This document shows, piece by piece, positions 2,323-63,020 of a stretch of 64,000 nucleotides of DNA (its first letter is position 1; each line of letters begins with the position of its first letter). The translations under genes were made by a program, and so were the position numbers. A model generated the notes under the pieces. It made no database searches. It had not been told where the DNA came from and saw only the letters and a list, made by a program, of their open reading frames with translations. This stretch comes from Candidatus Omnitrophota bacterium. Its GTDB lineage: Bacteria > Omnitrophota > Gorgyraeia > Gygaellales > Profunditerraquicolaceae. The stretch covers positions 309,324-373,323 of the forward strand of contig JAQUOD010000001.1 of the NCBI GenBank assembly GCA_028717245.1, given 5' to 3'.

Positions 2323-3576
2323 TTATGCGTGAATGGCCCTTTTCTTATAACTCAAAGCTAAATGTATAAAAAACAGTAAAATTGAATTTATGCATAAGGT
2401 TAACTGAACCTGTAAAAGGTTTGTGTGAAATAAAATAATGGCAAAGAATTGCAATAAGGTAAATAAAATTAAATATTTTATAAAACGCATGTCTTTTAGA
2501 GAAAGGAAATAGGTAATTAAAATAAATGAAAACGAAAAGAAACTCATGGAGAGCCCGAATAACCTGCCTAATATAACAGATTCGCCGAACGTTTTTCCGG
2601 TAAGTATCTTTAAAACGGAAACAGGGAAAAAATTATAAACTATGTTAGCGATAATACAAAGCACAGCGGCATACAAGAGGGAACGCCTTAATGCCGGACG
2701 GGTATCCATATTCCTGGCATTTAACCCTGCGGAGCGCGGAAACATTACCAGGCTTATTGCCCCCGGTAAAAAAAGAAAAATCTTGCCTACCATCTGCGCC
2801 AAAGAATAGAAACCCGCTTCAGCCGGGTTAAAAAAGTATTTTACCAACACCATATCGTAATTTACTAAAGCGGTAAAGCAAAAGAGGCTCACTGCCACGG
2901 GAAATAAGTAAGAAAAAAATTCTTTAAAATTTATATCCTCCTGCACAGGCCCCCGAGAAAAGAAATTGCGCAGAGGAAAAATAAAAATAATAATTCCTAT
3001 CAAATTAGCTGCCAGGAATGCGCCTAATGCCCCGCAGATATTAAACCCTAAACCAATAAATATAAAAGCAAGGCCCAGTTTTAATATTCCTGAGATAAGC
3101 GCGGAAGACACAAGCCAGTTAAATAACTCTAATCCCTGCAAGGCACCTGAAAAAACCGGCATAAACCAGGATAAAGCCAATAAGGCGGCTAAAATATAAC
3201 CGCAATTAAGAGAGGGAATTTTTAATTTATCCGTTACATAAGAAGCGGCCAAGAGAAAAATAAGGAACGTAAACACCGCAGGAAATAATACCTTCCTGCC
3301 AAGCCCCCTTAGTAAGGCCCTGGCTTTATCAGCTCTATTCTGCGCGCTGAATTCCGCGCTATATTTAGCTACTCCTGTCTGAATAGTTGCCAGGGGCGCT
3401 GAGATTAGCAAGAAGATAGAAAGTAAGGAATTAAAAGCAGCGAAGTCCGCTCCGGACATACGATGGGCAAGCAGGAGCTGATAAAAAAGATTAAAGATAT
3501 TAATCAAAGAGGTACCGAGGAATACAAGGATGATATTTTTATGAAAATTATCCAGCTTTTTTATCAGCCTCAACAT
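2323..3576 (-). CDS. polysaccharide flippase (MOP/Wzx-like polytopic membrane protein)
   Basis: 417 aa, about 12 hydrophobic helices. Sits in a glycosyltransferase cluster. Confidence 0.7.
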   Translation of the reverse strand: MLRLIKKLDNFHKNIILVFLGTSLINIFNLFYQLLLAHRMSGADFAAFNSLLSIFLLISAPLATIQTGVAKYSAEFSAQNRADKARALLRGLGRKVLFPAVFTFLIFLLAASYVTDKLKIPSLNCGYILAALLALSWFMPVFSGALQGLELFNWLVSSALISGILKLGLAFIFIGLGFNICGALGAFLAANLIGIIIFIFPLRNFFSRGPVQEDINFKEFFSYLFPVAVSLFCFTALVNYDMVLVKYFFNPAEAGFYSLAQMVGKIFLFLPGAISLVMFPRSAGLNARNMDTRPALRRSLLYAAVLCIIANIVYNFFPVSVLKILTGKTFGESVILGRLFGLSMSFFSFSFILITYFLSLKDMRFIKYLILFTLLQFFAIILFHTNLLQVQLTLCINSILLFFIHLALSYKKRAIHA

Positions 3577-4762: not shown

Positions 4763-6304
4763 TTATATTTTTGCGCTCAGGCCAACTTTCGCCTGCTCCA
4801 CATCCACCTTAATTACCTTTACTTTCAGTTTATCCTGAGGCTTCAACTGTGCCAGTATATCTTTTTCTATCTCGCTGGCATAAACCAAGCCCTCCAATTC
4901 CTCATCAATCTTCACAAATACCCCAAAATCAGTCAGGCTGACGACCTCTGTTTCCAGAAGAGTATCTAAAGGATACTTAGCGGCAATATCCGGCCAGGGG
5001 TTGGGCTGCAATTGTTTTAAACCCAAAGCAATGCGCCTGTTTGTAGCATCTACGGAGAGAACCACTACTTCTACTTTTTGCCCCTTCTTTAACACATCCT
5101 GGGGATGGGTTATTCTTTTTGTCCAGGACATATCTGAGATGTGGATCATCCCCTCTAGGTTACTATCCAGCTCTACAAATACGCCGTAGGTGGTAAAACC
5201 CCTTACCTTACCCGAAACCTTAGTGCCCGCCGGGTATTTGAATTCAGCATCTAACCAGGGGTTCTGTTCCAGCTGCTTAAGGCTTAAAGAAATCTTGCGC
5301 GATTCTTTATCAATATTCAACACCTGGACCTCCACCATATCCTGGATAGCGAACATCTCGCCCGGATTATTAATCCTCTTGGTCCAGGACATCTCTGATA
5401 CGTGGATCAAACCCTCTATCCCTTTTTCTAATTCTACAAATACGCCGTAAGGAAGGATATTTACGACTTTGCCCTTTATTTTGGAACCCACGCTATATTT
5501 TTTCTCGATATCCTGCCAGGGATCGGGAAACCTCTGCTTCAGGCCTAATGAGATCTTCCCTGCCTCTTTGTCCAAATTCAGGATTACGACATCAATTTTA
5601 TCTCCCAATGCCACGACTTCAGAAGGATGGCTGACCTTAGACCAGGACATATCAGTGATGTATAATAGCCCGTCTACCCCGCCTAAATCCACAAAAGCGC
5701 CGAAATCGGTGATGGCCTTGACGGTCCCGGAATGAATCATGCCTGCTTTTAGGTTCTGCCAGATCTTTTCTTTCGCCTCTTCCTTTTCTTTCTGCATAGC
5801 CTCGCGGTGAGATAAGATAATACTGTGCCTTAAGTTATTTATTTTAATGATCTTGAACTTAAATGTCTTATATAAAATATTTTTGTCAGGGACACCCCTA
5901 AAGGCAGAAAGCGATGCCGGCAGGAATCCTTCTATCCCCGTAACATCGATCAGAAAACCGCCTTTTACCTTTTTTATGGGCTTACCCTCAATGAGGCCGC
6001 CGTCTTTGGCATGCTGGACAATCTTATCCCAACCCTGTACGCGTATGGCCTTCTCCCGCGAGAGCCCAATCATGCCCGAGTCATCCTCGATGCAATCGAT
6101 AAAGAAATCAAGCTCTTTGCCCGCCTCCAGGTCCTCCCTGCTGAATTGGGTTATGGGCACAATACCTTCGGATTTAAAGCCCACGTCCACCAGCACCTCT
6201 TTCGTTTTTATGGAAACTATCTTGCCTTTTATAATCTGCCCTTCACGCAGTATTTTTATACTTTGGTTGTAAAGCTCCTCCATTATGGATTTTTCTTCTG
6301 TCAT
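4763..6304 (-). CDS. rpsA: 30S ribosomal protein S1
   Basis: 513 aa with repeated S1 domains (GxV...G.V.....FGAFV). Confidence 0.92.
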   Translation of the reverse strand: MTEEKSIMEELYNQSIKILREGQIIKGKIVSIKTKEVLVDVGFKSEGIVPITQFSREDLEAGKELDFFIDCIEDDSGMIGLSREKAIRVQGWDKIVQHAKDGGLIEGKPIKKVKGGFLIDVTGIEGFLPASLSAFRGVPDKNILYKTFKFKIIKINNLRHSIILSHREAMQKEKEEAKEKIWQNLKAGMIHSGTVKAITDFGAFVDLGGVDGLLYITDMSWSKVSHPSEVVALGDKIDVVILNLDKEAGKISLGLKQRFPDPWQDIEKKYSVGSKIKGKVVNILPYGVFVELEKGIEGLIHVSEMSWTKRINNPGEMFAIQDMVEVQVLNIDKESRKISLSLKQLEQNPWLDAEFKYPAGTKVSGKVRGFTTYGVFVELDSNLEGMIHISDMSWTKRITHPQDVLKKGQKVEVVVLSVDATNRRIALGLKQLQPNPWPDIAAKYPLDTLLETEVVSLTDFGVFVKIDEELEGLVYASEIEKDILAQLKPQDKLKVKVIKVDVEQAKVGLSAKI

Positions 6305-7742: not shown

Positions 7743-9120
7743 CCTTTAAAATTAATTCCCTGCCGTAGGCTAATAATTTTTTGGCATCGCTTAAATTCTT
7801 TGACTCCGCATAGATACGCATCAGAGGCTCGGTCCCTGAGGCCCGAAACATCAGCCAGCTTTCGTCTGCACAAATCAATTTTATACCATCGTAATCCTTT
7901 ACCTGCGTCACCTTTTTTCCTAAAAGTTGCCCCGGCAGCATTTCTTTCCTGGGTTCTACGCGTTTAGAAAGACGCAAATCCTGGCGTAAATAATAATAAC
8001 GGCCAAATTGTTTTTCGGTTTCATTCAAAATCTTCAGGATATCCTTATTACGGTAGGCCATCATCTCCAGGAGCAAGAGCCCTGCCACTGTCCCGTCGCG
8101 TTCAGGTATATACCCTTTGACGCCCATGCCGCCTGCCTCTTCTCCGCCGGCTAAGATATCTTCTGTCTCCATAAGGTTAGAGATATATTTAAAACCTACC
8201 GGGGTCTCGTAAAGCTTGGCCTTTAAAAATCCGGCTATATGGTCAATCATAGTCGTGCCTGCGATCGTCTTGACAATACCGCCGCGCCAGGACCTATCCT
8301 GATGCAGGTGCAACGCCAAAAGGCCCAATATTTTCTGTGGATGGATAAATATGCCGCCTGGCGCAACTGCGGCAATCCTGTCTGCATCGCCATCTAAGGC
8401 TATCCCCAAATCAAACTTCTCTTTTTTAACCCTGGATTTTAAACCTCCCAGGTTCTCTTCAACCGGTTCGGGGTTTATGCCCATAAAAGAAGGGTTGATG
8501 CTGTTACGCATAAACTCTAATCTTATATCTGTCCCTTTAAGTACCTGGGCGATAAAACTGTCTCCTGAACCATACATGACATCGACTAAAACCTTGAATC
8601 TTTTTTTCTTAACTTTCTTTAAATCAAGGTAAGAACGGATGAATTTAACGTAGGCTCCGGTTAAGTCTTCTTTCTTTATTAAATCCGCGCTGCCGCTATC
8701 AGGCTTAACAGGAGTTTTCCCTAAGCGTTTTTCTATATCCTCTGTGACCTCCTCACCTGCTGCCCCTCCTGAAGGTATCTTAATCTTAAAACCGTTATAT
8801 TGCGCGGGATTATGGGATGCGGTAATCATAATGCCTAAATCCAGTTTCCTTGACCTGACGGCAAAACTTAAAGCAGGAGTAGGGACAGCCCTGTCCGAAA
8901 GCAAAACCTTAATGCCGTTATTTTCCAGCACTCCCGCTGCTGCCTCGGCAAAATCTGCGGACATAAAACGCGTGTCATAACCTACTGCCGCATCCTTCCC
9001 GGAACCCAGATAATCTGCCACCGCCTGCGAAACAATCTTTAAGTTTTTAAAGGTGTAGTTCTTGGCAATGATACCTCTCCAGCCGTCTGTGCCGAATTTA
9101 ATCTCATGGTTATCTTGCAT
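7732..9120 (-). CDS. phosphoglucomutase/phosphomannomutase family protein
   Basis: TASHNP active-site Ser loop; GDGDADR metal site. Confidence 0.88.
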   Translation of the reverse strand: MQDNHEIKFGTDGWRGIIAKNYTFKNLKIVSQAVADYLGSGKDAAVGYDTRFMSADFAEAAAGVLENNGIKVLLSDRAVPTPALSFAVRSRKLDLGIMITASHNPAQYNGFKIKIPSGGAAGEEVTEDIEKRLGKTPVKPDSGSADLIKKEDLTGAYVKFIRSYLDLKKVKKKRFKVLVDVMYGSGDSFIAQVLKGTDIRLEFMRNSINPSFMGINPEPVEENLGGLKSRVKKEKFDLGIALDGDADRIAAVAPGGIFIHPQKILGLLALHLHQDRSWRGGIVKTIAGTTMIDHIAGFLKAKLYETPVGFKYISNLMETEDILAGGEEAGGMGVKGYIPERDGTVAGLLLLEMMAYRNKDILKILNETEKQFGRYYYLRQDLRLSKRVEPRKEMLPGQLLGKKVTQVKDYDGIKLICADESWLMFRASGTEPLMRIYAESKNLSDAKKLLAYGRELILKDAL

Positions 9121-57683: not shown

Positions 57684-59261
57684 TCAAGTTCCTTGACTCT
57701 CATGAATTTGGCGGGAGAAATAGCCACCGGTTAAGGCATCTATGGAGGCGGTGAGTTCCTGCAGTTTTAACTCCTTCTCAAACCTTTTCTTCCTGTCTTC
57801 TATACTAAGATTATCCATCTCCGCCTTAGTGCGGATACGCTCAAAATATAATTTGGTCACCTCATCTAAGATCTCATCGCGTAACTCTACCATTAACCGC
57901 GAACGCACATCAATGGAGGTCTGGTCGTCGTTCCAGATGAGTTCGCCTAAATCCCAGCTTAAAGTCACATCCCAACCTATGCCATCGTTGCCCTTACGCA
58001 GTATATCGTCTTCGGTCTTGGTGCTGGAACCTGTCTCCCAATGCCAGAGGTCAGTAATATTCCTATCCAGGCCTATGTTCACTTGAGGCAGAAACGCTCT
58101 CTTGGCTGCCTGTTTTCTCCAACGCATAATCTTCTGAGGTTCTACTTCAGCATACTTAATTGCCGCCTGCTGCACTTCATTAATCTTAGGTTCGCCCTGG
58201 CAATACAGGAAAAAGGTATTGCCACCCCCATTGTTACTAAAACCTGTTAAATTTGCCTTAAATAATCCTTTATCACAAGCCGCATAAAGATTATTCAGGT
58301 TATCTAAAACCAGAAACCTGATATCATCTGCTGGCAGGCTAAACGATAATTCCTGCCAACGCCCCATGCTATATTTAAATATACCGGATTTGGTAAGCGC
58401 GTAGATGTCGGATCTATCGGAAACTAATAAAAATTTTATACCTTGGCTCAACAGGCCGTAGTTAGAAACTGCATCCCAACTCTTACCTTTATCCTGGCTC
58501 TTATAAAGGCCTTTTGCGGTAGCCAGATAAAGATAATTTAAGTTATTAAGGTCGCAACTTATATGGCTTACTTGCGAAAAACGCTGCTCTTCATCCCGAT
58601 CCCCCTTCTCTTGCCCGTTATCGCTATCTCCATTTTCTACGGGCTTAGCTACAAAAACCCTCTCCCAGGATTGGCCTCCATCTTGCGTCTGGAAAACCCC
58701 GTCTACACAAGCCAGAGAAATATAGCCCGATTTTTTGGGATGAACGGCAATAGCGAGAATATTACTGTTAGCTAATGTGCCTGATGCCCTTTGCCAACTG
58801 CGGCCCTTATCTTTACTCACGAAAAACCCGGACCTGGTGCCTAAGTAAATGGCCTCGGATAAAACCGCGATGCTTGTGCAGTCACTTTCTAAATAGTTCT
58901 TACCCTGAAAAATCCTCCTCCAGCCCTGGCCTTGATTATGGCTATAGAAAAGGCCGTTGCCGGTTGCCGCATATAGATAATTTCTGTTCTGATGATCAAA
59001 TAAAAGGAAATTTACTGCCTTGTTTTGGCCTTTTGCCAAAAAGATATTCCTCCAACTCTCTCCTGCATCCTCTGTCTTAAATATCCCCTTATCAGAACCG
59101 ATATAGATAATGCGCGGATTTTTCGAATCGATTAAAACACACCTTAAATCCAGGATTTCCCTGCTTATGTTCTGCCAGATGAACTCATCAGCTAGGGATC
59201 TTGTCCTAAGGCCTAAAATAAATAAACCTGCAGCTGCCAGAATTACAATATATTTTTTCAT
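57684..59261 (-). CDS. secreted BNR/Asp-box repeat (beta-propeller-like) protein with C-terminal coiled-coil region
   Basis: Signal peptide MKKYIVILAAAGLFILG. Five or more S/T-x-D-x-G-x-S-W-like repeats (DAGESW, GQGW, KGRSW, DGGQSW, DKGKSW). Confidence 0.7.
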   Translation of the reverse strand: MKKYIVILAAAGLFILGLRTRSLADEFIWQNISREILDLRCVLIDSKNPRIIYIGSDKGIFKTEDAGESWRNIFLAKGQNKAVNFLLFDHQNRNYLYAATGNGLFYSHNQGQGWRRIFQGKNYLESDCTSIAVLSEAIYLGTRSGFFVSKDKGRSWQRASGTLANSNILAIAVHPKKSGYISLACVDGVFQTQDGGQSWERVFVAKPVENGDSDNGQEKGDRDEEQRFSQVSHISCDLNNLNYLYLATAKGLYKSQDKGKSWDAVSNYGLLSQGIKFLLVSDRSDIYALTKSGIFKYSMGRWQELSFSLPADDIRFLVLDNLNNLYAACDKGLFKANLTGFSNNGGGNTFFLYCQGEPKINEVQQAAIKYAEVEPQKIMRWRKQAAKRAFLPQVNIGLDRNITDLWHWETGSSTKTEDDILRKGNDGIGWDVTLSWDLGELIWNDDQTSIDVRSRLMVELRDEILDEVTKLYFERIRTKAEMDNLSIEDRKKRFEKELKLQELTASIDALTGGYFSRQIHESQGT

Positions 59262-59282
59262 TTTGCCCTCCTTTTATATTAA

Positions 59283-59309
59283 TAGACGCAGGAAGGCAGT
59301 AAATCTAAC
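59283..59309 (-). promoter_or_regulatory. conserved promoter-like motif GTTAGATT-N11-TGCGTCTATTA upstream of the BNR gene
   Basis: Near-identical bipartite motif also at 62276-62302. The CGTCTA resembles an ECF -10 element. Confidence 0.55.
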
Positions 59310-59330: not shown

Positions 59331-61541
59331 CTAGTTGGTGCTGGGATTATCGAATTCCGAGAGTTTCTCCTTTATTTCCTGGTATTCAGGCGTACCCATC
59401 TGCCCATAAATCTCCTGGGCCTGCCGGAGATAGTCTTTGGCTTTATTCCTCCGGCCCCTTTTTTCGTATAAAACCCCCAGGCTGTAAAAAGCAGAAGCAA
59501 GTTCCGGGCGCGCGTTTATTTCTTTGCCGGCTAAAACCGATTGCTTAAGAAACCTTTCGGCATCAGCAAAATTATCCATCTCCATATATAATTCGCCGAT
59601 CATGCCATAATCACCGGCGATATTGGGTTTATTCTGCTGCCTCTGATCAATTGCTAACCCTTTAAAGTAATAAGCTATGGCCTTTTGGTATTGTTTCTCA
59701 AAGGCATATATCTCACCCAGGTTAAAATAATAATCGCTCAGCTCTCCTTTTAATTTTAATTTTTCGAATAGCTTCAGGCCCTTATGATAAAAATCCCTGG
59801 CTGCGGCAAAATCATCCTTATTAGTAAAAACCAGCCCTATATCGAAATAATCGCAGGCTAAATTATACCTATGCTCATACAGATATTTCCTCTCCCGGTT
59901 GATTTCCGAACTCTTCATTAATAATTCCAGGGCCTTATCATTATCCTCCTTATCGATGTACCAGACCGCCAGTTTCCTAAGGGCGATTGCTTCATTCAGC
60001 TTGTCCCCGCCTTCGCTGCTTAGGCGGATAGCTTTATTATAGAAATCAAACGCCTTAGAATATTCTCCCTGCAGGTGATAAATCCAGCCGATCCCGATAT
60101 AAGCACAAGAGAGATGTTTTTTATTATTCTTCTTTTCACTATAAAGGGCATAATCAAAATAATATTTAAGCGCCTTCTCCCTATCGCCTTGCCTCTGATA
60201 AGTATCTGCTAAAAGAGGATAAGCCTGCAGAAAAAGTGGCTCCTTTTCAATGATTTGTCCGCAGAGTAAAATAACTTTCTGGTTATCGCCTTTAAGATAC
60301 AATTTATGCGATTTAGCAAAAGAAAGGTAAGTATTGGGATTTATGGTCGGCAGCCAGGCATATAAAGGTATGCAAAGAGATACTATAAGGGCTACTGAGG
60401 CAATCGCTAAAGCCGGTTTTTTATATAAAGAGGCCTTTCTTTTAAACTTTAGCGCCTGCGGTTTATGCTTAGGTTTAAATAATATAAAGCTGGGATTTCC
60501 GTAGAGAAGATAACTCATCCAGGATACGCCGGCAATGCCATATTCTTTGATTAATTTTAGGCGCCCCAGGCGCACGCATTCTCCTACGCAGGAGCCCCTA
60601 ATTAACTGGGTATAGAATTCCTTGGCAAATATCAGGCTTACGGGGTCTTCGATCTTGCGCGTGGTGCCGATATAATGCCGCACGCCGGAAAATAAAAATG
60701 CCGAGGCCAAGCTGTAATTTTTCTCTTGATAATCTGCATCCGTTAAACCGGATGCGGCCCTTGCAGAATGGCAGGCATTGGAAAAAATCAGACTCGGCAA
60801 AGGCGAACTCTGCGCCAGCTTAAGGATATCCGAAGGCGTAAACTTCCCGTCGTTTAACAACCATCCCATATTTTTCTGGTTATCCGTATCATATTCGCAG
60901 TGTCCGGCAAAATGCACGATATCATAATCGCGCAGATTTTTCTTTACATAGAGCGTATCGATAGAGGTAGATTTAAAATTGATGCTAATCTCGTTTCTTC
61001 TGCGGTCAAACTGATTTTTGATATACACGCCCTCTAGATACGCGGACCTTAGGTCATTGGTAGGGTTAGCCAGTATCAACATCCTGGGAGTACCCATGTG
61101 GCTTCGGTATTGCGGCAGGCGTATTTCATCCTTGGTCCGGATTAACCTGCCTAAATTAAATTTGAGGCACAGGAAATTTTCTGCGTCGTATAAGAGTTCC
61201 CAGGGAATATGGACTAATTTTTCATCTATGGAAAGGATTAAATCCTTAATGATCGTGGACTTTAATCTGTCTTTAACTATCCTCGTAAGCAACTGGTCCC
61301 AGAGTAGCTGGCCTATTTTCCTAAGGTTTTGCAGGGCATCGGACTCTAAAATACCTCCTGGGGTAGCTTTATTCAATATAGCTATCATTTCCTGGCATAA
61401 TTTATCTATTTCGGGAAAGGATACGGCTAGCTGGCTATAATGCCTTAAGGTCGAGGCAAGCTCTTTTTGTTCAAAAATGCTCATCGCCAGCGTCTCTTCT
61501 TGCCGCGATATCTCTAAAACCAGGGCATTCGATTCTTCCAT
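59331..61541 (-). CDS. CHAT-domain (caspase-like protease) protein with one TM helix and C-terminal TPR repeats
   Basis: IVHFAGHCEY (His) and LIFSNACHSA (Cys) CHAT dyad. TM helix KPALAIASVALIVSLCIPLYAWL near residue 375. About 330 aa of TPR-like repeats follow. Confidence 0.8.
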   Translation of the reverse strand: MEESNALVLEISRQEETLAMSIFEQKELASTLRHYSQLAVSFPEIDKLCQEMIAILNKATPGGILESDALQNLRKIGQLLWDQLLTRIVKDRLKSTIIKDLILSIDEKLVHIPWELLYDAENFLCLKFNLGRLIRTKDEIRLPQYRSHMGTPRMLILANPTNDLRSAYLEGVYIKNQFDRRRNEISINFKSTSIDTLYVKKNLRDYDIVHFAGHCEYDTDNQKNMGWLLNDGKFTPSDILKLAQSSPLPSLIFSNACHSARAASGLTDADYQEKNYSLASAFLFSGVRHYIGTTRKIEDPVSLIFAKEFYTQLIRGSCVGECVRLGRLKLIKEYGIAGVSWMSYLLYGNPSFILFKPKHKPQALKFKRKASLYKKPALAIASVALIVSLCIPLYAWLPTINPNTYLSFAKSHKLYLKGDNQKVILLCGQIIEKEPLFLQAYPLLADTYQRQGDREKALKYYFDYALYSEKKNNKKHLSCAYIGIGWIYHLQGEYSKAFDFYNKAIRLSSEGGDKLNEAIALRKLAVWYIDKEDNDKALELLMKSSEINRERKYLYEHRYNLACDYFDIGLVFTNKDDFAAARDFYHKGLKLFEKLKLKGELSDYYFNLGEIYAFEKQYQKAIAYYFKGLAIDQRQQNKPNIAGDYGMIGELYMEMDNFADAERFLKQSVLAGKEINARPELASAFYSLGVLYEKRGRRNKAKDYLRQAQEIYGQMGTPEYQEIKEKLSEFDNPSTN

Positions 61542-61547
61542 CTGTTA

Positions 61548-62252
61548 TTATTTTTTTATATCCAATAATACGGAGGCGATTTTGCTTTCGGGATTAGATA
61601 TCTCAATGGTATATTTGCCCGCTAATACATGCTCGAAAATCACCTTTTCGGAATCGCTAAGGTAGGACTCTAGTTCCAGATCTTCTTTGAAGAGGGTAAC
61701 CCTTAAATCTTTTATGACGCGATGGGTTTGCTTATCTTTTACAAAAACGCTCAAATCAAAAACCTCACCCACCTTCCTTTCTAATTTTAACTCTACCCTA
61801 ATATTCTTAAAATCCTTTAATATGGTCACTTCGTCTTTAAAATCTTTTATCTGACGGCTGCGCAATACGGGCGCAGGCACAAATTCCTGGCCCACCAGTA
61901 TATCTCCGGTAGTATGGATTATCTCTAACGCCTTTTCTTTAAAGGCAATACAAATCTCTAAAATAGGGGCCTTACCTTGCCCGATAACTAAATTTTTCAT
62001 ACGTTCCAACAATTCTTTAGGCACGTTTTTACCCTGCTCGGGCCCTAGCCTCAGCTGAATAGCAAAGGCCTCGGCACAGATATCGCAACTGAGCAAATGT
62101 TCTTCTAAATCCCGGCTTTCTTGCTGGCCTAGCCTTCCTTCCAGAAAACAGGCCCAAGCCTCCTCATCAGGATGCGTGTCATGAACCCTGACGTGACCGG
62201 ATCTCCATCTCTTATAAACTGCCTTAATTAATCTCTCTAATCGATCTGCCAT
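61548..62252 (-). CDS. anti-sigma factor, ZAS (zf-HC2) type, cytoplasmic
   Basis: HLLSCDICAE H-x3-C-x2-C zinc motif. No TM segment. Immediately downstream of the ECF sigma gene. Confidence 0.65.
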   Translation of the reverse strand: MADRLERLIKAVYKRWRSGHVRVHDTHPDEEAWACFLEGRLGQQESRDLEEHLLSCDICAEAFAIQLRLGPEQGKNVPKELLERMKNLVIGQGKAPILEICIAFKEKALEIIHTTGDILVGQEFVPAPVLRSRQIKDFKDEVTILKDFKNIRVELKLERKVGEVFDLSVFVKDKQTHRVIKDLRVTLFKEDLELESYLSDSEKVIFEHVLAGKYTIEISNPESKIASVLLDIKK

Positions 62253-62275
62253 TTTTAAACCCTCTCCTGCTATAA

Positions 62276-62302
62276 TAGACGCAAATACTTCAGCAATCTA
62301 AC
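62276..62302 (-). promoter_or_regulatory. conserved promoter-like motif GTTAGATT-N11-TGCGTCTATTA upstream of the anti-sigma gene (overlaps sigma stop codon)
   Basis: Same motif and spacing as at 59283-59309; followed by an SD and ATG. Confidence 0.55.
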
Positions 62303-62895
62303 ATAAAACCTTTGTCTCTAAAACACTCTCTTAACCGTTCTAAAATCCGCGACTTACGCATATCTATGGCCCCGCGAGAGACTTTAAAATAGGCCCTTAG
62401 TTCTTCGAGGTTTAACCCCCTATGGATATGTAGCTCCAAGAAATATTTATCATTATTCTCCAGTTTATCAATGCAGTCTTTAAGGTGCACCAGCCTCTCC
62501 TGTTGATTGTAGGTATCAGCTGCAGACGGAGAATTAGAAGAAAGTATCTCTGTAAGGCTAAAGCCCTTATCGTCTTCCTCATCAATAGAGATAACTGACT
62601 TAAGCCGGCGCGTGTAACTAATGGTAAAATTAACCGTAACTTGTCTTAACCAGCTGGCGAGGCTTGCGCCATTTCTGGCTTTAAAACTGCTTAATTTTCT
62701 AAAATTATCTTTGACTAAGGAGAGGATTATTTCCTGAAAGATATCGTTAAGGTTTTCCTGCGTAAAGCTAGAACCCTGGATTTTTAAAACGCTGTGTATA
62801 TAGTTATATATCAGGCGGGAATACTTATCTATGAATTCATCCCAGGCGCGTTTGTCCCCTTTGGCACACTTTTGGACAAACTCTAGATCATCCAT
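62290..62895 (-). CDS. RNA polymerase ECF-type sigma-70 family factor
   Basis: Region 2 (FIDKYSRLIYNYIHSVL) and region 4 HTH (LELHIHRGLNLEELRAYFKVSRGAIDMRKSRILERLR). Confidence 0.85.
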   Translation of the reverse strand: MDDLEFVQKCAKGDKRAWDEFIDKYSRLIYNYIHSVLKIQGSSFTQENLNDIFQEIILSLVKDNFRKLSSFKARNGASLASWLRQVTVNFTISYTRRLKSVISIDEEDDKGFSLTEILSSNSPSAADTYNQQERLVHLKDCIDKLENNDKYFLELHIHRGLNLEELRAYFKVSRGAIDMRKSRILERLRECFRDKGFMLDC

Positions 62896-62904
62896 AGTGG
62901 TAAA

Positions 62905-62934
62905 ATTATACCACTAAATATTCCCCTTTATCAA
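62905..62934 (-). promoter_or_regulatory. sigma70-type promoter TTGATA-18-TATAAT for the ECF sigma gene; -10 sits in a GTGGTA/TACCAC mini-palindrome 9 nt before the ATG (leaderless-like)
   Basis: Minus-strand -35 at 62929-62934 and -10 at 62905-62910. No SD before the ATG at 62895. Confidence 0.45.
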
Positions 62935-62982: not shown

Positions 62983-63020
62983 TTGCACCAGGTGCCCGAT
63001 TAGTTTCGCACCTGGTGCAA
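62983..63020. promoter_or_regulatory. perfect 13-bp inverted repeat TTGCACCAGGTGC-N12-GCACCTGGTGCAA between hppA stop and the sigma promoter; G8 homopolymer at 62957-62964
   Basis: Read directly from the sequence. No U-tract follows on the coding strand, so operator or hppA 3' hairpin are both possible. Confidence 0.6.

Follow-up and report, generated by a model that had tools for sequence, protein, structure and literature searches.

SigW of Bacillus subtilis, a sigma factor of the extracytoplasmic function (ECF) type, has the promoter consensus TGAAAC-N16-CGTA, and Csx30, the substrate of Craspase, binds an RpoE-like sigma factor. Of gene regulation in the Omnitrophota, a candidate phylum of uncultivated, ultra-small bacteria that may depend on a host, almost nothing is known to our knowledge. 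A CGT in the -10 box is a hallmark of ECF promoters, the AAC hallmark of the -35 box having later been dropped as a defining ECF feature (PMC8103513). In Myxococcus xanthus, the ECF sigma factor DdvS is paired with DdvA, a transmembrane (TM) anti-sigma factor with a periplasmic TPR-CHAT module (PMC11506125), and the type III-E Craspase combines Cas7-11 with the TPR-CHAT protease Csx29 (PMC10028731). Here we describe a bipartite motif found twice in a stretch of 64,000 nucleotides (nt) of a Candidatus Omnitrophota metagenome-assembled genome (contig JAQUOD010000001.1), hereafter the window: once between an ECF-type sigma gene and a putative anti-sigma gene, and once before a gene for a BNR-type protein. 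We consider it probable, at about three chances in four, that this motif serves the adjacent ECF-type sigma factor as its cognate promoter, with the consensus AAAwwTTy-nn-GTTAGATT-N13-CGTCTATT; that this particular sigma factor recognizes it is suggested by adjacency and conservation.

A bipartite motif at the sigma/anti-sigma junction

The motif GTTAGATT-N11-TGCGTCTATTA has two exact copies on the minus strand of the window, designated P-antisigma and P-BNR (Table 1). All 19 specified bases are the same in both copies, and the sameness reaches one base further 5′ (TGTTAGATT). No third match was found in the window with up to three mismatches permitted; 0.02 matches are expected by chance, and none of 100 shuffled sequences contained two or more. 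The original prediction had placed the same motif, with the same spacing, before the BNR and anti-sigma genes and had noted a Shine-Dalgarno (SD) sequence and a start codon after each copy. Both observations hold: AAGGAGGG stands 5′ of the BNR ATG (59261), which lies 21 nt after CGTCTA, and GGAGAGGG stands 5′ of the anti-sigma ATG (62252), which lies 23 nt after CGTCTA. The limits then given (59283-59309 and 62276-62302) stop at CGTCTA, and the full motif runs to 59280 and 62273. P-antisigma overlies the 3′ end of the sigma gene: its last four codons, and the stop codon TGA (62292..62290), which falls within the promoter spacer. An A/T tract, AAAAAAATCCT, is located 5′ of P-BNR.

Conservation across the phylum was evaluated in 80 loci from 80 GTDB species, retrieved by an alignment of sigma homologues and amounting, with the window added, to about 0.99 Mb. 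The core GTTAGA-N15-CGTC gave 106 matches, all of which face a downstream gene whose start lies about 10 to 30 nt away or behind a longer leader. A 29-nt position weight matrix (PWM) detected 112 sites above the threshold of 14 bits, compared with 0.2 in Markov controls. Rather than being frequent without association to gene starts, the motif is both frequent and tightly tied to them. Among the 106 core matches, bases outside the search pattern were also conserved (T7 in 99, T8 in 96, T26 in 100, A27 in 105, T28 and T29 in 106), and positions 10 to 19 of the spacer were variable. The consensus of the 80 species and the window is GTTAGATT-N13-CGTCTATT, and over more than 200 sites CGTCTATT shows little or no variation. 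Such a pattern, two conserved boxes with a variable spacer, is typical of two boxes contacted by protein.

The junction between the sigma and anti-sigma genes carries the motif in about 77 of the 78 loci long enough to reach it. With respect to the sigma coding sequence, the -35 box at this junction occurs in two codon phases and at five offsets, and in 10 loci it lies wholly past the stop codon; a coding constraint therefore does not explain its conservation. The motif was also found upstream of BNR orthologues in 22 to 28 loci; it precedes nearly every BNR orthologue found nearby, whether these genes stand beside the sigma cluster or several kb off. In several loci, it precedes a gene divergent from the sigma gene that resembles the tyrosine transposases associated with repetitive extragenic palindromic (REP) elements (RAYT-like gene). 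Two junctions deviate in form: one (L042:8596-8784) contains two tandem promoter copies with a palindromic insert between them, and the other (L012:6880-6950) has a spacer longer by 1 nt.

An A-then-T tract, AAAwwTTy, is common to all classes of sites, coding and non-coding, at positions -10 to -3 relative to GTTAGATT (59319-59312 and 62312-62305 in the window), and reads AAAGGTTTT at the coding anti-sigma sites. This tract may represent an extended -35 element or an UP-like contact. Downstream of the motif, 77% of 231 sites have a pyrimidine at position 34, and 83% have a purine at position 35, 8 nt after CGTCTA. This pyrimidine-purine step would be the expected start of transcription, about 8 nt after CGTCTA. 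The likeness of the CGTCTA block to the -10 elements of ECF promoters, already pointed out in the original prediction, is borne out, CGTC being located in the -10 box at ECF-typical spacing.

The sigma factor passes the TIGR02937 model of the sigma70-ECF family (65.1 bits for a cutoff of 42.9) and weakly matches the Pfam domains Sigma70_r2 (residues 22-99) and Sigma70_r4 (residues 142-190); no ECF subfamily model of NCBIfam reaches its cutoff with this protein. Its top matches among solved structures are all ECF sigma factors, B. subtilis SigW being the closest, together with AlgU and RpoE. We obtained 918 homologues, the best 120 of which are at least 64% identical; the named ones among these 120 are labelled Candidatus Omnitrophica/Omnitrophota. 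Identity across the retrieved loci is 52-80%.

The sigma gene itself is preceded by a different, sigma70-like promoter, as had been predicted. This is the best sigma70-like match of the region, with 11 of 12 consensus positions, a TG extension and an 18-nt spacer. Its TATAAT ends 9 nt 5′ of the ATG, and an SD sequence is absent. In 78 of 81 loci, a TATAAT-like -10 box ends 6 to 10 nt 5′ of the sigma ATG; a TGn extension is present in 65 loci and an SD-like sequence in only three. No ECF-type motif facing the sigma gene was detected in the 81 loci by the core and PWM scans. These data suggest that the sigma mRNA is probably leaderless or nearly so, and that the sigma factor is most likely made constitutively, without autoregulation. 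Within the cluster, the strand of the genes has no terminator-like site. Just after the stop codon of the H+-pyrophosphatase gene there is a perfect 11-bp inverted repeat (GCACCAGGTGC ... GCACCTGGTGC, 62985-63018) without a T-tract, probably a terminator or insulator that parts this gene from the sigma promoter; its assignment to a REP family was rejected, as it does not belong to a repeated family in the window.

The sigma, anti-sigma, CHAT-TM-TPR and BNR genes are all on the minus strand. The 234-amino-acid (aa) protein encoded after the sigma factor gave no match in Pfam or NCBIfam, and the sequence search of the PDB returned only a meaningless coiled-coil match. Its gene is always directly downstream of the sigma gene, in all loci, and H27, H52, C56 and C59 are conserved to at least 95% in 77 orthologues. 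Because of this HxxxCxxC motif and the synteny, we consider the protein a putative cognate zinc-type anti-sigma factor of the adjacent sigma. By inspection, without a TM predictor, no hydrophobic segment was noted. The next protein of the operon contains an N-terminal CHAT domain (Pfam, 94 bits) and a C-terminal TPR domain (TPR_12, 109 bits); its catalytic dyad H214/C257 is conserved to at least 95% in 63 orthologues. It has one hydrophobic helix with a K/R-rich flank on the N-terminal side, from which the CHAT domain is predicted to be cytoplasmic and the TPR domain periplasmic. The BNR protein matches Pfam Sortilin-Vps10 (56.4 bits) and PSII_BNR (36.1 bits).

The sigma, anti-sigma and CHAT-TPR genes are syntenic in every locus long enough, whereas BNR is adjacent in only about one third of the species. 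The proposal that the four genes form one system is too narrow, since at least 15 other families share this promoter (see below). The shared promoter makes BNR a member of the regulon, not necessarily part of the signalling module. In the synteny survey of the loci, no regulator gene other than the sigma/anti-sigma pair co-occurred with the motif. In one locus (L016:4403-4484), the CHAT gene is separated from the BNR promoter by a cyclic di-GMP-I-GGC riboswitch, which scores 59.3 bits for a gathering score of 59.

Table 1. Features of the window, and of other loci and contigs, by position
Feature	Position	Strand	Details
P-antisigma	62273..62302	-	-35 box GTTAGATT 62302..62295; 13-nt spacer 62294..62282; -10 box CGTCTATT 62281..62274; exact match
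P-BNR	59280..59309	-	-35 box GTTAGATT 59309..59302; spacer 59301..59289; -10 box CGTCTATT 59288..59281; exact match
Predicted transcription start, anti-sigma/CHAT operon	62268	-	A at motif position 35, after a C; based on the conserved pyrimidine-purine step
Predicted transcription start, BNR	59275	-	motif position 35, A after T; from the pyrimidine-purine step
ECF-type sigma gene	62290..62895	-	201 aa; sigma2 and sigma4 only
Sigma70-type promoter of the sigma gene	62905..62934	-	TTGATA (62934-62929)-N18-TGG-TATAAT (62910-62905)
Putative anti-sigma gene	61548..62252	-	234 aa, soluble; zinc-binding motif H27-x24-H52xxxC56xxC59
CHAT-TM-TPR gene	59331..61541	-	736 aa; 6 nt after the anti-sigma stop codon, same operon
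BNR gene	57684..59261	-	525 aa; signal peptide; BNR/Asp-box (Sortilin-Vps10 / Ycf48-like) beta-propeller
Hairpin of the BNR copy	59264..59298	-	5′ arm UGCCUUCCU 59298..59290 (promoter spacer) pairs with 3′ arm AGGAGGGCA 59272..59264 (SD)
tRNA-Val sites	L120:2505-2638, L127:868-1001, L155:605-737, L158:2535-2667, L164:344-476		
Structured leaders	L008:6190-6374, L009:10026-10232, L010:3983-4281 and 8392-8615, L022, L032, L047, L087, L123, L132, L149		

Downstream genes and the spacer/SD hairpin

The exact 16-base pattern was searched in public metagenome contigs. The matches listed, to which the following counts refer, comprise at least 120 stretches with about 126 sites: 11 at sigma/anti-sigma junctions, 6 before BNR, 10 before RAYT-like genes and about 91 before other genes. 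An SD sequence, a start codon and an open reading frame (ORF) occur within 45 nt at 72 of the 119 sites that have enough sequence downstream, compared with 6.9% of random positions, and the distances from site to start peak at 20-24 nt. The downstream families, defined by clustering and Pfam, include ComEA-like proteins (TM segment and HHH_3; at least 11 sites), ComM/YifB (at least 11), RecA (at least 2, each with a sigma70 promoter in tandem) and DprA (at least 1). The motif also precedes genes for ORF6N (at least 16 sites), a 53-aa peptide (at least 7), a DNA methylase (at least 5), SpoVG (at least 3), a 23S-rRNA-IVP protein (at least 3) and the YhcG nuclease (at least 1), as well as toxin-antitoxin genes at a few sites. 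The putative regulon is thus much larger than four genes, the same promoter standing before at least 15 further gene families. No ComEC, ComF or pilus gene was seen downstream of the motif among the matches listed.

At recA, the ECF-type motif, which has an SD-like hairpin arm, is followed by a sigma70-like TTGACA-N17-TATAAT, giving tandem promoters (L148:9651-9930; L156, minus strand, about 5790-5819). In the former contig, a REP-like palindrome is inserted between the two promoters. Furthermore, five contigs have a tRNA-Val whose start lies 31-32 nt past the -10 box, without SD or ORF (Table 1), which argues for a transcriptional rather than a translational signal. According to ARAGORN, the anticodon of this tRNA is GAC or AAC, at an unusual anticodon position.

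The same pattern gave 18 matches in the viral contigs of IMG/VR (L201-L218), 16 of them with the complete architecture before small genes. One contig (L209, motif at 3541-3569) is a temperate phage that encodes an integrase, RecT, a YqaJ-like exonuclease, the single-stranded DNA-binding protein SSB and a reverse transcriptase of the diversity-generating retroelement type. Phages or prophages of Omnitrophota appear to use the host promoter. Some of the viral small genes begin with MISxxTWxWN... or M..KKLIxE... The flanks of the metagenome contigs (0.8 Mb) contained only five additional PWM sites, which suggests that the number of sites per genome is of the order of ten or more. No copies of the regulon proteins were detected by tblastn in the sigma-flanking loci or in the window.

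The spacer of P-BNR is predicted to pair with the SD region of the gene, leaving the -10 box in the loop (Table 1). The fold has an energy of -14.2 kcal/mol (z = -3.8; 1 of 200 shuffles as good), and no comparable hairpin is present at the anti-sigma copy of the window (z = +0.9). Most of the targets other than anti-sigma have a pyrimidine-rich spacer complementary to the downstream SD region. The statistics were based on duplex energies, compared with those of shuffled sequences and of swapped partners. All 19 BNR orthologue sites with a short leader form a spacer/SD duplex of -10 kcal/mol or below; their mean is -14.3, versus -9.4 with shuffled spacers. This pairing is site-specific, the energy changing from -14.25 to -11.74 after the swapping of partners (z = -5.9). 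Over all sites other than anti-sigma the values are -11.08 and -9.00 (z = -8.2), with none of 200 swaps as good. The anti-sigma sites (about 80) show no excess pairing, with -4.04 observed and -4.39 after swapping. The stems, 9-15 bp long, vary from site to site, and the -10 box is always in the loop. A single consensus structure of the BNR hairpin, sought in a MAFFT alignment, was dropped because the register of the stem shifts with the length of the loop.

The predicted BNR start is located between the two arms, 3 nt upstream of the 3′ arm, so that mRNAs initiated by the sigma factor would not contain the 5′ arm and their SD would be free. In the simplest reading, the hairpin would serve as insulation, sequestering the SD in read-through transcripts. 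Anti-sigma, which has no hairpin, is the one target expected to be translated from sigma read-through.

Several further elements accompany the motif. The RAYT homologue (160-196 aa), whose score of 80 bits on NF047646 just equals the cutoff, carries the promoter, sometimes as the variant GTTAGAAA or GTGAGAAA. Such sites were found in L001, L002, L003, L004, L006, L007 and L019 (about 120 nt upstream of sigma, on the opposite strand), at L031:5647 and in many of L081-L200. REP-like palindromes (GGGGACnnTTCT...AGAAnnGTCCCC) are common upstream of the sigma genes in the loci that bear RAYT. In some species, a structured leader of 100-300 nt with nested hairpins, which opens with AAGTGAGGGCAyAACTTAyGG, separates the promoter from BNR, anti-sigma, ComM or ComEA (Table 1); this leader may represent a novel cis-regulatory RNA or else the insertion of a palindromic element. 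A search of the structured leaders and the non-coding downstream sequences against Rfam gave no leader family and returned only tRNA-Val, tRNA-Lys, rRNA ends and the one cyclic di-GMP riboswitch. The conserved non-coding sequence AGAGGGTTGCTCAAAACTCAGGTTTTTGTAATTTTAGACCCGC, which has no Rfam match, directly follows the promoter in four contigs (L109:132-, L159, L189:1669-1893, and L008 on the minus strand at about 8750); in L189, a tRNA-Lys is located 226 nt downstream.

A proposed circuit and its alternatives

If the motif is the cognate promoter of the ECF-type sigma factor, the following circuit can be proposed. The sigma gene, with the sequence features of an extended -10 promoter and a leaderless mRNA, would be read by the housekeeping polymerase. 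With no terminator after sigma, read-through would provide a basal level of the soluble zinc-type anti-sigma factor, which would sequester the sigma factor. As the precedents of Craspase and DdvA suggest, the periplasmic TPR domain may sense a signal and activate the cytoplasmic CHAT protease, which would remove the anti-sigma factor; alternatively, release could be of redox type, through oxidation of the anti-sigma zinc site. Free sigma would then take RNA polymerase to the motif, with sigma4 on GTTAGATT and sigma2 on CGTCTATT. From within the 3′ end of the sigma gene, P-antisigma would lift anti-sigma and CHAT, not sigma, and provide a self-resetting negative feedback. Concomitantly, the dispersed copies would turn on BNR, ComEA, ComM, DprA, RecA, the REP-associated transposases, ORF6N, tRNA-Val and prophage genes. 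The anti-SD spacer, whose hairpin and covariation are observed in the sequences, would fold onto the SD in transcripts read through from upstream and leave them untranslated.

The original prediction that the adjacent ECF sigma factor drives the anti-sigma/CHAT operon and BNR has gained strong comparative support from 80 species; the recognition itself is what we infer. Several points weigh against the assignment. The -35 box GTTAGATT does not contain the ECF-typical AAC, and the motif is absent 5′ of the sigma gene, where classical autoregulation would place it. The assignment rests, for this latter reason, on the adjacency of anti-sigma. Since only about 55% of ECF sigma factors are predicted to be autoregulated (PMC8103513), the absence of autoregulation is not disqualifying. 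About 5% of the metagenome matches (L104, L131, L181, L190) look like chance, without gene context; the regulon counts are those of the exact 16-base pattern, among the matches listed. The origin of the metagenome and viral contigs in Omnitrophota is suggested by shared gene families and REP-like palindromes alone, and the cleavage of anti-sigma by CHAT, like the membrane topology, is purely conjectural. Another alternative sigma factor, encoded elsewhere, could in principle read the motif.

This last explanation, in which the adjacent sigma/anti-sigma pair would be merely one target of a remote sigma factor, accords with a sigma gene that has no motif of its own and with a large, dispersed regulon, as for a general alternative sigma. 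We judge it unlikely, since the motif lies exactly between sigma and anti-sigma in about 77 of 78 species loci and combines a CGTC -10 box and a spacing of the ECF type with an adjacent protein of the same type. Moreover, the sigma factor (52-80% identity) and the motif are both unusually invariant in the phylum, as expected of a co-evolving pair. Very improbable, in our opinion, is that the two boxes form the operator of a DNA-binding transcription factor over an unrecognised promoter. Fixed spacing by itself cannot tell a sigma factor from a regulator, and two boxes that both end in ATT, about two helical turns apart, could suit a dimer. However, they have no dyad symmetry, and their similarity as direct repeats is just 4 of 8. 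No other conserved -10/-35 pair was found near the sites; the motif is strictly directional, at a fixed distance from a gene, tRNA or SD; CGTC, at the distance of a -10 box, marks promoters of the ECF type; and the sigma/anti-sigma pair comprises the only co-occurring regulator genes.

The element might instead act as a hairpin of RNA or single-stranded DNA, either a translational operator (loop CGTCTATT, 5′ flank GTTAGATT) or a hairpin recognized by RAYT. The site-specific complementarity of spacer and SD, with stems of 9-15 bp at most sites other than anti-sigma, and the RAYT-like genes that often adjoin the motif would speak for such a function. It is nevertheless quite improbable, because about 80 anti-sigma sites retain both boxes without the hairpin (-4.04 versus -4.39 after swapping) and the tRNA-Val sites are devoid of any SD. 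The conserved boxes lie outside stems that vary by site, unlike those of REP elements, and the position relative to the start, the pyrimidine-purine step and the upstream A/T tract all fit a promoter. A REP/RAYT element proper, that is, a palindrome with a conserved stem and a GTAG-type tetranucleotide, was rejected on the grounds that the stems vary, the flank and loop are conserved and the anti-sigma sites are stemless. The likelihood that the two copies in the window match by chance, or result from coding conservation at the end of the sigma gene, is practically negligible. P-antisigma does overlie the last sigma codons, but 0.02 matches were expected by chance, the junction copies occur in two codon phases and at five offsets and lie wholly past the stop codon in 10 loci, and conservation is equal in the non-coding DNA before BNR and many other genes. 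Shuffles, the PWM scores of Markov controls and the variation in codon phase led us to reject both origins.

Beyond the promoter assignment, we advance only tentatively, and as a rather doubtful whole, a joint reading in which the protein would be a phylum-wide master sigma factor of the ECF type. It might control a programme of competence, recombination and mobile elements (ComEA, ComM, DprA, RecA, REP transposases, prophage genes and a dedicated tRNA-Val) from promoters with anti-SD spacers. Its release might be Craspase-like, independent of clustered regularly interspaced short palindromic repeats (CRISPR): a membrane-anchored CHAT protein with a periplasmic TPR sensor might cleave the soluble zinc anti-sigma factor. 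Temperate phages might have copied the promoter, thereby coupling their genes to the host programme.

The nearly invariant 16-base signal would make the regulon readable by a scan of any Omnitrophota genome, metagenome or associated phage. The targets suggest that one sigma factor co-ordinates DNA uptake and recombination, REP-transposase activity and prophage genes. The system would be a distinct addition to the ECF repertoire, with a constitutive leaderless sigma, a promoter in the sigma 3′ end that drives the inhibitor and CHAT, and anti-SD spacers. It would also be a natural CRISPR-free counterpart of the Craspase/DdvA logic, in which a protease frees a sigma factor. The tRNA-Val would be a tRNA under an ECF-type promoter, and in the sigma gene an alternative sigma factor would have a leaderless mRNA that is conserved across species. 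Stringent and unusual as it is, the sigma/promoter pair might also find use as an orthogonal part in synthetic biology.

Comparison with known sigma factor systems

By its domain content, the module is of the ECF sigma/anti-sigma kind. As in the canonical modules SigW-RsiW and RpoE-ChrR, the sigma factor consists of sigma2 and sigma4 only, and the anti-sigma factor with its zinc motif is encoded next to it. As in canonical ECF promoters, the motif is bipartite and highly stringent, with CGT(C) in the -10 box. The G-N20-CGT spacing of the motif equals the G-to-CGT distance of the SigW consensus, and the ligand spacing H-x24-HxxxCxxC of the anti-sigma factor is that of ChrR (Rhodobacter sphaeroides RpoE-ChrR). 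In contrast to these modules, the -35 box GTTAGATT is without AAC, and the sigma gene, with its extended -10 sigma70 promoter and probable leaderless mRNA, is apparently not autoregulated. The putative cognate promoter is located inside the 3′ end of the sigma gene and would drive the anti-sigma side only; the anti-sigma factor is soluble and has a separate CHAT-TM-TPR partner; and many of the promoters have an anti-SD spacer. We found no description in the literature of this sigma factor or promoter, nor of a link between a sigma factor and competence in Omnitrophota, and neither CHAT nor Omnitrophica appears in the main text of PMC7826278, which classifies the ECF sigma factors.

DdvS-DdvA likewise brings together an ECF sigma factor, a zinc-bound anti-sigma domain (of class I in DdvA), a span of the membrane and a caspase-like TPR and CHAT module, and proteolytic release of the sigma factor has been proposed there as well (PMC11506125). 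However, DdvA unites all its parts in a single polypeptide, in which TPR-CHAT is periplasmic and the active site is incomplete, and DdvS acts on its own promoter (PMC11506125). Here, the anti-sigma factor (234 aa) and the CHAT-TM-TPR protein (736 aa) are encoded by separate genes 6 nt apart, and a fusion of the DdvA type was rejected for this reason. The order is CHAT-TM-TPR, the CHAT domain is predicted to be cytoplasmic, its His/Cys dyad is conserved and the sigma factor is apparently not autoregulated. Furthermore, the DdvS regulon is an island of CRISPR and cyclic-oligonucleotide-based antiphage signalling (CBASS) genes (PMC11506125), whereas PADLOC returned no defence-system model for our locus, only generic TPR-repeat matches to the CHAT-TPR protein.

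With Craspase, the locus has in common a CHAT protease predicted to be cytoplasmic, a small inhibitor, here only putatively sigma-binding, and an ECF-like sigma factor, all encoded together. The sigma factor matches the III-E model NF041236 only weakly (E = 6e-7, 29.6 bits for a cutoff of 100). Unlike in Craspase, the domain order is reversed (CHAT, then TPR), a transmembrane helix is present and the putative inhibitor is a zinc-type anti-sigma factor, not Csx30-like. Neither a Cas7-11 gene nor a CRISPR array came to light in the four genes and their annotated immediate neighbours, no dedicated array scan having been made. A type III-E module was rejected from the NF041236 score, the reversed domain order and the lack of a PADLOC defence match.

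The alternative sigma factors ComX/SigX of streptococci, which read the cin-box TACGAATA, and SigH of staphylococci and Listeria are competence sigmas. They resemble the present system, as proposed, in that an alternative sigma factor is combined with a very stringent promoter before comEA, dprA, recA and comM-type genes; the -10 region here reads TACGTCTATT, to be compared with the cin-box. This comparison also draws on PMC4754846. Here, unlike with these factors, control would be exerted by an anti-sigma factor and a protease rather than by a peptide pheromone or adaptor, and the regulon also includes many mobile-element genes and a tRNA. As for the anti-SD spacer, the closest parallel is the fold-back inhibition of IS10/IS50, where the ribosome-binding site is paired with a sequence lying just before the start from which the element itself is transcribed, so that read-through mRNAs stay silent. 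In both cases, only transcripts from the proper promoter would be translated. In contrast to IS10/IS50, an ECF-type promoter here contains the anti-SD arm in its spacer, the loop encloses the -10 box, and the arrangement recurs, with compensatory variation, at dozens of unrelated chromosomal and phage genes.

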